Part shown: positions 22,506 through 28,806 of the stretch, piece after piece | Layout: the number at the start of each line of letters is the position of its first letter | Position numbering within the stretch: the first letter of the stretch is position 1 | Source: Candidatus Thorarchaeota archaeon | GTDB lineage: Archaea; Asgardarchaeota; Heimdallarchaeia; Hodarchaeales; Hodarchaeaceae | Length of the DNA: 32,000 nucleotides | NCBI GenBank assembly: GCA_048882505.1 | Contig: JBHLRO010000001.1 | Span: forward strand, 210,001-242,000 | Direction: 5' to 3' | Made by a program: the position numbers and the translations under genes | The notes under the pieces: model-generated | What the model saw: the letters and a program-made list of their open reading frames with translations, nothing else | The model's database searches: none | Told to the model about the DNA's origin: nothing

Positions 22506-24860
22506 TTAAGATATATCTGATATGACTGAGTGACCATCTCTATTCCGGCTAATGTTTATAGAATATGGGAATTGATCCGCGATTTCAGTCAAGTGAGTTA
22601 TTAGGATTATTTTGAACTTATGAGATAGTTTGAACAGCTTATTAACGAAAGCTTGTTGAGCTTCCAATGAATCTAATGAGCCTAGGTCTCCCTCATCTAT
22701 AAAAAGAGTCTTTTTTATAGTGGAATCCTTAGGATGATTTTGACCCAGTTCAGAAAGCTGCTCACTAATTGCAAGGCGCAGGGCGGCATTGATCTGGGTC
22801 CGTTCCCCTCCTGAGAATGTCGCAACATCTCGAGCACCCGTGGGAGTATTGATTAGAATATTAAAACCAGTCGCTTTCTTTTCAGATGAGAGTTCTTCGA
22901 GCTGAAGGTTAGTCAACCTTTGATTGGTAAGTTCTCCAAGAATGTATGATGCTCTTCGTCCAATCAGGGGTAAAATCTTTTGAATCGCATAGAACGGAGC
23001 CCCTTTGGTATGAAATACATCTATTTTTAGACGTTCTAATATCGACTCTTTCTTTGCCAAATCTGCTAGCGCATTCTCTAGCTGTTCAATCTCAGGCTTG
23101 ATTTTAGTTAACTCATCTAGATTTCGCTCATATCCCTTTATTTTTTCATCAAGACGGGCGATGTTCTCATTGACAATCTCGCGTTCTGCCTTATAGTTCT
23201 CAATATCCTTTAGAAGAGAGGAGTATTCTGCTATAATATCGGGAGATCCGGATAAACTTATCTTGAATTCGGAAATAGATTTCCGTATTGATGTGATCTG
23301 CTTGTTTATGGAATCGATTGCACTTGTGGGATCTTTAACCTCCTCCAATTCCTTCTGTAATCTATTATACTCCTGCTTAATCTTTTTGATTTCCTTATTT
23401 TTCTTTAAGAGCTCCGCAAGTTTTGTTCCCTTCTCTGGTGAGAACCCAATTTCCTTTAGACGTGATTCTGCGTCTTTTAGCTCGAGTTCATGTCTGGCCA
23501 AATCTTCATCCAGTCGATCCATCATGGCCTTTTTCATGTTCTTAAAATCCGCAATTTTACTCTGGATCTCGCTGAGTACAAAAGAATCGGCATTAATTTT
23601 GTTTTTAACTTCTTCTAGGCTTGCAAGTTCAGTTCTTGCTTTCTGTTGTTCTTCTCCAAGTTCATTCAGAAGGAGTTCTCCCAAATTCCAAGTTTTTTCC
23701 AGGGAAATCCGTTGAATACGTTCTACAAGACGCCCTTCTTGTTTTAGCGTTTTAAAGGCTGTCTTTTGGTCGATATCCGTTGACAGGTTCTTGCTTCTAG
23801 TCTCTTCCTTTGAAATACGACTCTCAATTTGCGACTGCTCTAATGTCCCTTTTTCTTTTAAGCGATTCACCTGCTGAACCATTGCTTTTATCTGCTGTTT
23901 TACCGATTTACTTTCGTGTTGAAGACCAGTGAGAGTGAGAATTTGATCCTCATCATCCCTTATCAGATTTGTTTTATCTCTAAGATCATCTAATCGTTTT
24001 TTTAGTATATTAAATTCATCTAGTTGTTTATTTTGTGTTTTCAATTCTTCTGAGATGCGAACCAATTGGTTTTGGGCAGCCTCATACTGTGCTTGGATTC
24101 TACGATAGTGTTCAACCTCTTTTTGCCTGTCATTTTCCTTAGACCTTAACGAGGTTAGTTTATCTGAAATGGCCTTATTACGATTAATATTGTGGACTAA
24201 TTGAGGTTTTAATTCCTGAATATTATTCTGCATGGCGGTAATTCTTTCTATTTCTTTTTGTTTCTCTTCTAATATACCTGAAAGCCTATTCTTATCATTT
24301 AACACATTTTGTAGTCTTGATGTGGCATATTGTGAGGCTTTCTCAAAAATATCAAGTCGAAAAAGGTTTTGAAGTGTGGATAACCGTTCCGTTGACGTTT
24401 TTGAACCTAAAGCCTTCATCTCATCTTGTCGGATGATTGTGGCATGCTTGAATGCTTGATAGTTCATTCCAAGTAGGTTGGTTCTAAGCAACCTATTCAG
24501 ATCAGGGATTGTGCCTGGAACCGTCCTCCCATCAACTCGAACGTCCAAATAACTCCGCCCTTGCTTATTTCTACCACGTTCAACCCTTACTCTAGCTAAA
24601 TTCGTCCTAAAATGACAAACTACTTTACCATTTCTGCCACATATGTTCTCAATATTGACAGTTGGAAGTTCAGTTCTGGAACTTCGACCAAATAATGCAA
24701 AGGTTAATGCATCTAATATTGTGGTCTTCCCCGAACCTGTCGGGCCGGATATTACTAGATATGGAACCTTAAAATTGAGGGTAGTAGGGGATCTGTAGTT
24801 CATAAAATTGTAGAGCTTAATCCTTTGAAGGTCAAACCCGATCCCGATTGTCTCACCCAC
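22506..24860 (-). CDS. rad50: Rad50/SbcC-type SMC-family ATPase lacking the CXXC zinc hook
   Basis: Walker A GPTGSGKT, Q-loop IRQDE, coiled coil about aa 171-612, signature FSGGE, Walker B/D-loop LFIDEGDLGSLD, H-loop ITH. GTG start overlaps the upstream TAG by 1 nt. Confidence 0.9.
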   Translation of the reverse strand: MGETIGIGFDLQRIKLYNFMNYRSPTTLNFKVPYLVISGPTGSGKTTILDALTFALFGRSSRTELPTVNIENICGRNGKVVCHFRTNLARVRVERGRNKQGRSYLDVRVDGRTVPGTIPDLNRLLRTNLLGMNYQAFKHATIIRQDEMKALGSKTSTERLSTLQNLFRLDIFEKASQYATSRLQNVLNDKNRLSGILEEKQKEIERITAMQNNIQELKPQLVHNINRNKAISDKLTSLRSKENDRQKEVEHYRRIQAQYEAAQNQLVRISEELKTQNKQLDEFNILKKRLDDLRDKTNLIRDDEDQILTLTGLQHESKSVKQQIKAMVQQVNRLKEKGTLEQSQIESRISKEETRSKNLSTDIDQKTAFKTLKQEGRLVERIQRISLEKTWNLGELLLNELGEEQQKARTELASLEEVKNKINADSFVLSEIQSKIADFKNMKKAMMDRLDEDLARHELELKDAESRLKEIGFSPEKGTKLAELLKKNKEIKKIKQEYNRLQKELEEVKDPTSAIDSINKQITSIRKSISEFKISLSGSPDIIAEYSSLLKDIENYKAEREIVNENIARLDEKIKGYERNLDELTKIKPEIEQLENALADLAKKESILERLKIDVFHTKGAPFYAIQKILPLIGRRASYILGELTNQRLTNLQLEELSSEKKATGFNILINTPTGARDVATFSGGERTQINAALRLAISEQLSELGQNHPKDSTIKKTLFIDEGDLGSLDSLEAQQAFVNKLFKLSHKFKIILITHLTEIADQFPYSINISRNRDGHSVISDIS

Positions 24861-27762: not shown

Positions 27763-28806
27763 TTACCGAGTTATGGTGTCTAAATGTCTATGAAATGGAT
27801 CTATCGTCATATTTTCATATGTAATGAGATTTTTGAAAAGGGCTTCTTCATTAACCCCCAACTGAAATCCTACTTCAACCAACTCATCATTGTACATCTC
27901 TGGAACTCGTCTTAGAAGAGTTGCTATATTATGTGCGTCAACGAGAGGAAATGGGTATCCTGGAATGCTGTCTACCTTTGAGTAGTATGCTAAATGAGAG
28001 AAAATATCATCCAGTTTTTCTTTACCAGTTATGGCTATGTCCACTCGAAAGACTTTGATAGGGTCTTCATGAAGCTTGGCTAGAAATCCCTTACCAAGAT
28101 TGGGATAAACCTGTTTCTTCTCTGGTACTTCCTCAATCCTAGTATAAACCATCCTAGGATCATCCTTTACCAGTTCCCGAAATACAGCTTCATCAGTTAA
28201 AGTGTTAGCAAATTTACGAGCAGTGCTTCTTTTCGAGATGCCAATTAAAACATGATTCTTGTTTTTACAGGTGGTTAACAGTTCTTCGGCGGCTTTTTTG
28301 ATTTCATCAACTTGAACATATGTTAATGCCCCGTCCATAGCCACGATTGCATCAGAGAACTTTTCGGCTGCTTGTGTTGCAGTATAGAACTCTTCGATGT
28401 TTCTCAGTTGGTTTAAGATGCCCAAGGACCTTTGTTTTCCCCCTAGTGTTCGAGAAATCTCTTGATGGAGAATCCGATAATCTTGGTCAAAATTTAGGAG
28501 ATCCGGGTTATTCGGAGCTATCAAGAAGGCTTTGTCATGAAATTGATGTTCGTCCAAAACGAGCATATCAGATACCGTATCATAATCATAAACCACCACA
28601 GCAGTTCTGACAACCGCGATCCGTACATCTAGGTCCGCATTATACCAAATCCATCTGTTTGAACCGTCAACCGCTATCATTTTTGGTGGTGGGTCTCCGT
28701 ATGTGAACTCATGAAACTCTTGAGGAGCGTTGCGCTTGATATCCTGATTTGCGGAATTCTGTGAGCTCTGGATATGGGAAAGAAAGAGCTCGAACTGTTT
28801 TCTCAT
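27763..28806 (-). CDS. nurA: NurA 5'-3' nuclease (RNase H fold)
   Basis: IAVDGS, R..EE, AMDGAL, IGISK and GYPFPLVDAHN motifs, with the catalytic Asp/Glu/His positions intact. Located immediately upstream of herA. Confidence 0.88.
   Translation of the reverse strand: MRKQFELFLSHIQSSQNSANQDIKRNAPQEFHEFTYGDPPPKMIAVDGSNRWIWYNADLDVRIAVVRTAVVVYDYDTVSDMLVLDEHQFHDKAFLIAPNNPDLLNFDQDYRILHQEISRTLGGKQRSLGILNQLRNIEEFYTATQAAEKFSDAIVAMDGALTYVQVDEIKKAAEELLTTCKNKNHVLIGISKRSTARKFANTLTDEAVFRELVKDDPRMVYTRIEEVPEKKQVYPNLGKGFLAKLHEDPIKVFRVDIAITGKEKLDDIFSHLAYYSKVDSIPGYPFPLVDAHNIATLLRRVPEMYNDELVEVGFQLGVNEEALFKNLITYENMTIDPFHRHLDTITR

Follow-up and report, generated by a model that had tools for sequence, protein, structure and literature searches.

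A conserved cysteine-free helical module at the coiled-coil apex of an archaeal Rad50 family that lacks the zinc hook

A family of archaeal Rad50 proteins has no CxxC zinc hook and carries a conserved, cysteine-free helical module of 67 residues at the apex of its coiled coil. The member studied here is a Rad50/SbcC-family ATPase encoded in a stretch of 32,000 nucleotides (nt) from Candidatus Thorarchaeota archaeon (GTDB order Hodarchaeales; GenBank assembly GCA_048882505.1, contig JBHLRO010000001.1, positions 210,001 to 242,000), hereafter called the window. The zinc hook is treated as defining the Rad50/SbcC apex, and we found no description of a hookless Mre11-Rad50 of this kind in the literature. 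The absence of the hook is without doubt real; it runs through the whole family and matters for function. We take this protein to be the organism's repair Rad50 and lean towards the reading that the module does the job of the hook without metal. For the wider proposal, that a natural metal-free apical dimerisation module replaced the hook in the sole Mre11-Rad50 of Hodarchaeales and several euryarchaeal orders and that the entire operon was passed between phyla, we consider the chances to be even.

An earlier note on this DNA, made from the letters alone, had described a protein of 784 amino acids (aa) with intact ATPase motifs and with two cysteines, both in the head, and the translation of 22506-24860 on the minus strand agrees in all these points. 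Walker A (GPTGSGKT, residue 39), the signature SGGE (683), Walker B (LFIDE, 719-723), the D-loop (D725-D730) and the H-loop (TH, 755) were all located, and Walker A, Q145, the signature, Walker B, the D-loop and H756 are invariant or near-invariant across 78 aligned sequences that share 30-50% identity with the query. Between the head lobes runs a long antiparallel coiled coil (AlphaFold2 helices 171-615) with arms of 218 and 221 residues. The protein matched AAA_23, SMC_N and AAA_29 in Pfam, its top fold matches were Rad50 structures, and the closest solved sequence was that of M. jannaschii Rad50 (E 1e-16). The NCBIfam models scored below threshold, with 100.4 bits against a cut-off of 700 for Rad50 PRK03918 and 99.6 bits against 478.5 for TIGR00618 (sbcC); the cut-offs of the equivalog Rad50 models span 700-1087, of which the hookless protein reaches about 100 bits. 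Nearly all family members have the D-loop IDEGDLGSLD, whereas hooked archaeal Rad50s have LDEPTxxLD. This form presumably resembles that of bacterial SbcC (DEGFGxLD) with one residue added.

By direct count, C74 and C82 are the only cysteines and aa 83-784 are cysteine-free. The coil contains only two histidines, H315 and H457, so the claim of a coil without cysteine and without a nearby histidine pair was correct. The Rad50_zn_hook model (PF04423) had no match in the whole protein, and none at E<=10 when the apex was searched alone, where Pfam returned only sub-threshold coiled-coil noise. An SMC hinge is likewise missing, as the earlier note had stated: PF06470 did not match, and only a 6-residue turn lies between the tip helices.

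The loss of the hook extends across the family. None of the 120 best homologs has a CxxC anywhere, and neither does any of 241 family proteins, a set that combines these best homologs with representatives retrieved by a profile of the apex and with homologs of a member from Methanocellales. Among the full-length family proteins, 204 of 208 carry the motif R-x3-I-x2-E-x2-W in mid-protein. As a control we used a 942-aa hooked Rad50 (CPTC at 499) from a sister Heimdall family, and 117 of its 120 homologs showed a mid-protein CxxC, mostly CPxC. The absence of CxxC is far beyond chance. Hook loss, which the earlier note had asked to be checked across orthologs, is thus clade-wide.

The two failures that had been considered beforehand, an assembly error and a degenerate singleton allele, were both ruled out. 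Positions 23300-24000 are covered by contigs of four sequencing runs from two studies, two of which runs may be the source sample of this DNA, and the apex was re-assembled in independent runs with no indel and no joint. Seven strain differences were found across this interval; five were synonymous, and the other two (E395D and K366T) fall at variable columns. No RNA was listed among the sequencing runs that cover the locus. A broken or degenerate allele was rejected since the whole family is CxxC-free and the frame and motifs are intact.

We next describe what stands at the apex. In the alignment of 78 sequences, aa 361-435 form an island that matches the ATPase head in conservation, within an otherwise poorly conserved coil. 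Seven of its residues are invariant (F369, L372, G376, R384, I385, E388 and W391) and eleven positions are near-invariant (R355, A368, E375, L378, E380, R381, E404, I422, D425, F427 and E431). AlphaFold2 models of the whole protein (pLDDT, predicted local distance difference test, 80.5) and of aa 303-472 (pLDDT 95.3; predicted template modelling score 0.73) agree on the same arrangement: a stem helix at 304-357, a loop at 358-364, a tip helix at 365-388, a turn at 389-394, a second tip helix at 395-419, a loop at 420-423 and a stem helix at 424-471. The two tip helices, of about 25 residues each, are therefore joined by the turn with W391, the single tryptophan of the protein (codon TGG, 23688-23690). 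Since the arms are balanced, W391 sits at the true chain reversal, where the earlier note had placed the midpoint of the coil; its span of 23586-23768 (aa 365-425) coincides with the two tip helices of the models.

Both bounding loops have conserved motifs, T361-x-x-D364 and N423-x-D425-S, and T361-x-x-D364 and N423-x-D425 look like helix caps. Because such motifs are conserved in both loops, the tip hairpin appears to be a delimited module and not the mere end of a coil. By helical periodicity, a hydrophobic stripe of tip helix 1 (371, 378, 382, 385 and 389) faces 397/398, 401, 408, 412 and 415 of helix 2. The N-terminal patch of A368, F369, L372 and G376 probably packs onto the junction formed by L359, I363, I422 and F427, and the same periodicity would put the invariant or near-invariant E380, R381, R384 and E388 on the solvent-facing side. 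The module is amphipathic, charged at most positions outside the seam, and has a net charge of about -1, which makes it unlike a DNA-binding pad or a membrane hairpin. An apex in the form of a membrane hairpin was rejected, the tip helices being amphipathic and charged.

The earlier note had seen the apex as a bare four-residue W-N-L-G turn and had raised the question whether this turn is clade-wide. This description has to be replaced, since the conserved unit is the capped two-helix module of 67 residues. Of the turn itself only the tryptophan stood: W391 is present in 78 of 78 aligned sequences, but N-L-G is variable with a consensus of W-L-x-x, and a subclade whose Rad50 is fused to Mre11 has replaced the tryptophan while keeping the junction motifs (EAF..L...G and I-x-x-D-x-F).

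The apex resembles no described hook or dimerisation fold in the searches made. When its profile was aligned with a profile of 40 hook regions in hhalign, no similarity was found (probability 1.4%), and against PDB sequences it gave only chance matches (E>0.2). Foldseek of the apex model against the PDB returned nothing at E<=0.001, and the best hit of a wide VIA-align search (Z 11.8) was among generic helical hairpins, below the noise level for helical models. The fold matches were generic antiparallel hairpins, including coil segments of Smc and Rad50. RecN of D. radiodurans (PDB 4abx) ranked 48th in Foldseek (E 0.47, probability 0.20) amid such hairpins. The idea of another apical interface fits the conservation island at 361-435; its RecN-like version found no support in the fold searches. 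A feature search of the ESM Atlas yielded only unnamed matches of low overlap. Over 1.84 billion representative proteins, a profile of the apex alone found 49 clusters; the full-length ones were all Rad50-like and the others were fragments.

The coordinates of the gene, its parts and its neighbours are collected in Table 1. The genes nurA, herA, mre11, rad50 and that of an MrfA-type helicase are co-directional in this order, and the TAG stop of mre11 overlaps the GTG start of rad50 by 1 nt. The Mre11-Rad50-NurA-HerA cluster recurs in Methanocellales, in a Thermoplasmatota-like genome and in a closed Heimdall genome, and NurA and HerA were present beside every family member examined. Four representatives of the hookless family (P0151, P0154, P0156 and P0157) are Mre11-Rad50 fusions of 1192-1207 aa that combine Metallophos with AAA_23 and bear a divergent version of the hookless apex.

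Table 1. Features of the rad50 locus in the window and of the encoded hookless Rad50.
Feature	Position	Strand	Description
nurA nuclease	27763..28806	minus	347 aa
herA-type ATPase, P0004	26103..27755	minus	550 aa
mre11/sbcD-type nuclease, P0002	24860..26080	minus	406 aa; Metallophos; translationally coupled to rad50
rad50, P0001	22506..24860	minus	784 aa; Rad50/SbcC-family ATPase without zinc hook; GTG start
N-terminal ATPase head lobe	24351..24860	minus	aa 1-170; Walker A G39-T46, Q-loop Q145; both Cys (C74, C82)
ascending coiled-coil arm	23790..24350	minus	aa 171-357; low-confidence break 294-302
conserved apical module	23589..23789	minus	aa 358-424, 67 residues; T361-x-x-D364 cap loop, helix 1, W391 turn, helix 2, I422-N-x-D425 loop
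tip helix 1	23697..23768	minus	aa 365-388; invariant F369, L372, G376, R384, I385, E388; near-invariant A368, E375, L378, E380, R381
tip turn K-T-W-N-L-G	23679..23696	minus	aa 389-394; W391 TGG 23688-23690
tip helix 2	23604..23678	minus	aa 395-419; E404 near-invariant; position 408, across from G376, holds a small residue
descending coiled-coil arm	23016..23588	minus	aa 425-615; opens with conserved D425-S-F427-x-L-S-E431
C-terminal ATPase head lobe	22509..23015	minus	aa 616-784; signature SGGE 683, Walker B/D-loop LFIDEGDLGSLD 719-730, H-loop H756
DEAH helicase, P0003	20227..22503	minus	758 aa; DEAD, Helicase_C, WHD_HRQ1 and MrfA Zn-binding (MZB) domains; fifth operon gene in Hodarchaeales

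The hookless protein is the only Rad50 that we could find in its cell. In the assembly of 4.32 Mb, which is 94.5% complete, the hook model had no match above its cut-off, and AAA_23 and the Rad50 model NF003034 recovered only the hookless rad50 and a 1217-aa protein on contig C7. The latter has an SMC hinge and is therefore a true SMC, so it was rejected as a second Rad50. A motif scan gave one candidate for a second, hooked Rad50, with internal CxxC pairs on contig C19, and this was UvrA. Four closed chromosomes with a family member were also searched (a Heimdall genome, a 2.0-Mb euryarchaeon, a Methanomassiliicoccales genome and a Thermoplasmata genome). In each the Rad50 model found only the hookless protein, accompanied in two of the four by an SMC-sized protein of about 1200 aa. 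The operon context, the Mre11 fusions, the lack of another Rad50 and the weakness of the matches to defence systems (given below) together point to the repair Rad50 of the cell and not to a paralog. Reading the physical pairing from the genes, we take the hookless protein to be the organism's working Rad50 and the ATPase partner of Mre11 in an end-resection machine with NurA and HerA.

Compared with the canonical archaeal Rad50s of M. jannaschii, P. furiosus and Sulfolobus (PDB 5f3w/3aux and 3qku; hook 1L8D), the hookless protein has the same split ABC head and long antiparallel coil, the same coupling to Mre11 and the same company of NurA and HerA. It differs in the 67-aa helical apex that stands in place of CxxC/PF04423, in its D-loop, and in being shorter (about 780-830 aa against about 880-900 aa).

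Other apices without a canonical hook are described. In yeast, Rad50 with the hook swapped for the MukB or Smc hinge is functional, and the hook-dead Rad50 (CC to GG) is not (Tatebe et al. 2020, PMC6969161). These experiments show that the hook acts in constitutive dimerisation and that another module can take this over, so that the apex requires stable dimerisation but no particular module to provide it. These chimeras likewise have a metal-free protein apex, but they are artificial and carry a globular hinge, whereas the hookless family is natural and clade-wide and has a two-helix tip whose dimerisation we only infer. SbcE has a different central domain (PMC2811018). Like the hookless family, proteins of the SbcE (YhaN)/SbcF type are Rad50/SbcC-like, have an Mre11-type nuclease partner and another central element, and lack CxxC. 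However, the tips of SbcE/YhaN (PF13514, AAA_27) are described as hydrophobic hairpins of membrane type and the hookless tip is amphipathic and highly charged; PF13514 had no match in the hookless protein. The SbcC-derived LmuB of Lamassu carries 0-2 CxxC motifs, for which its authors suggest divergent dimerisation strategies, and in short Lamassu the LmuB apex contacts LmuC and LmuA (PMC12663957). LmuB thus shares with the hookless family a CxxC count that can be zero. It differs in having LmuA/LmuC effectors and short kinked coils, where the hookless Rad50 has chromosomal Mre11, NurA and HerA.

The yeast hinge swaps, the CxxC variation of LmuB and the central domain of SbcE led us to propose a model for the apex. 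In this model the module at aa 358-424 would stand in for the CxxC hook without metal. Within an Mre11(2)-Rad50(2) complex each Rad50 chain would contribute its tip hairpin to a four-helix bundle, with contacts through the exposed E380, R381, R384, E388 and W391 and through a notch formed by G376 and A408. One self-complementary arrangement would pair R384 with E388' and R381 with W391', the notch permitting close approach, and with such packing the ring or rod would be shut at its apical end. Several points weigh against the model. No computed result has the tips binding each other, and the apex searches with Foldseek and VIA-align recognised generic hairpins only and no dimerising fold. Most of the conserved hydrophobic residues can be explained within one chain, by the hairpin seam and the mini-core at the junction. 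Moreover, W391 was lost in the Mre11-fused subclade, so the tryptophan is not indispensable to the family. For two copies of aa 310-470, a complex prediction based on the family alignment reached a score of 0.36, against a mark of 0.42 and 0.00 for the controls, and we count it neither for nor against the model.

Since one chain can satisfy the conserved hydrophobics, the module could be a structural cap with a fixed joint at an open apex, the arms being held together only at the end where the heads and Mre11 lie and through coils that zip up side by side. The cap-like T361-x-x-D364 and N423-x-D425 would then define a built-in joint, and it is the joint motifs, not W391, that the fused subclade retained. 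However, conservation at the level of the ATPase motifs, exposed charges included, exceeds what a hairpin cap needs, and in yeast the CC to GG Rad50 is non-functional while any dimeriser rescues it (PMC6969161); we regard an open apex as rather unlikely. The invariant exposed charges E380, R381, R384 and E388 would suit any protein interface, so that the conserved tip might also be a docking site for HerA-NurA, Mre11 or another factor, with the arms joined indirectly or not at all. The LmuB apex, with its 0-2 CxxC motifs, does touch partner proteins (PMC12663957), and NurA and HerA accompany all family members examined. Yet these two and Mre11 are found with hooked Rad50s as well, the MrfA-type helicase is confined to Hodarchaeales although the tip is conserved more widely, and no candidate for a family-specific partner emerged. 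Docking therefore seems to us improbable.

The identity of the gene could also be questioned. It might be a Rad50-like paralog from another system, such as Lamassu LmuB or the archaeal SMC-related proteins, or a decaying or mis-assembled gene. All NCBIfam Rad50 equivalogs stay far below cut-off (100 against 700 bits), and the defence-system models gave matches, but these were weak and partial for LmuB (75 bits) and weak for the HerA anti-phage models. The locus has no neighbours of LmuA/LmuC type. ClsN/Sph, archaea-specific SMC-related proteins, have a zinc hook in most members (PMC9389158); their model NF045487 scored 34.7 bits against a cut-off of 300, and the hookless protein has no CxxC. 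Furthermore, the gene is coupled to mre11 and fused to it in relatives, and it is the only Rad50-like gene in its own genome and in the four closed ones. Decay or mis-assembly is opposed by the intact frame and motifs and by the identical re-assembly of the apex in independent runs. We find a paralog, pseudogene or artefact very hard to believe and consider this reading essentially excluded. The model in which the tips of the two Rad50 chains associate without metal remains the one that we prefer.

The best matches of the hookless protein, with 88% and about 50% identity, were in metagenome-assembled genomes (MAGs) of Heimdallarchaeota/Hodarchaeales. No fewer than 479 sequence clusters and about 153 species-level genomes make up the family, and none of the 479 hits named a cultured host. 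Its hosts, all MAGs, belong to Hodarchaeales, Thermoplasmata/Methanomassiliicoccales, Methanocellales and Hydrothermarchaeota, with a few stray bins under other labels. Among 151 sampled Asgard genomes, the apex occurred in the organism's own genus, where 5 of the 6 other genomes had it, and in a single additional family; it was absent from all the remaining ones. Sister Heimdall families carry hooked Rad50-like proteins. Two members came from contigs with unexpected labels. One, on the 1.57-Mb contig CAVTBR010000001.1 labelled Bathyarchaeota (L082), is possibly a further horizontal transfer. The other, on the 6-kb contig WVZL01000043.1 labelled Aminicenantes bacterium (L095), is likely the result of mislabelling or mis-binning.

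In a tree of the head domain, all 34 sampled hookless proteins, fusions included, formed one clade amid hooked archaeal Rad50s (Shimodaira-Hasegawa-like approximate likelihood ratio test, SH-aLRT, 100). Within it, the proteins of Hodarchaeales and those of euryarchaea form separate subclades (99 and 98, respectively). The tree included no bacterial SbcC and its root, placed on a single long SMC branch, is unreliable. We take this to mean that the hookless design arose once and that the operon was then probably transferred between phyla.

Another Heimdall family has 720-aa Rad50-like proteins with a CELC/CDVC hook in mid-protein and the D-loop LDEPLGSLD (L026, L029; G074/G003: L027, L028, L030, L032). 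One of its genomes carries two copies of the gene about 5 kb apart (G026:C1:400321-409561). On the head tree these hooked proteins sat on a long branch as sister to the hookless clade, with weak support (86).

Several features of the neighbourhoods were observed besides. The gene of the MrfA/Hrq1-type DEAH helicase starts 2 nt after rad50 and is found also in the closed Heimdall genome CP070695.1 (L023:10377-12635); it was missing from the euryarchaeal operons examined. In a Methanocellales genome (L022:3523-6446), mre11-rad50-nurA-herA adjoins the genes of two topoisomerase VI subunits and of an AsnC-type regulator. At two of the fusion loci (L129:6001-9579 and L130:4827-8405) the fusion directly follows nurA and herA, and after it comes a separate open reading frame of 115 aa with a match to SbcC Walker B, which may point to a split or a frameshift in the C-terminal head there. 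L129 also has a Piwi gene upstream and an OLD-family gene downstream.

Among SMC-like proteins, reviews separate 'hinge SMCs' from 'CxxC SMCs' (PMC12663957), and there is a long-standing debate on the opening of the hook and on whether zinc has a role other than simple dimerisation (PMC6969161). If our preferred reading is true, not every Mre11-Rad50 requires a zinc hook, and hook opening or zinc-dependent regulation would be dispensable in nature. A compact, metal-independent coiled-coil tip could also serve as a part in protein engineering. The family is a natural experiment, in which the only Rad50 of the cell brings a helical tip without cysteine to a genuine Mre11-Rad50-NurA-HerA machine. 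Hodarchaeales are an Asgard group that is often placed nearest to the eukaryotes. They lack the hooked LDEPT-type Rad50 of other Heimdall lineages, which bears on the repair toolkit that is inferred for the archaeal ancestor of eukaryotes.

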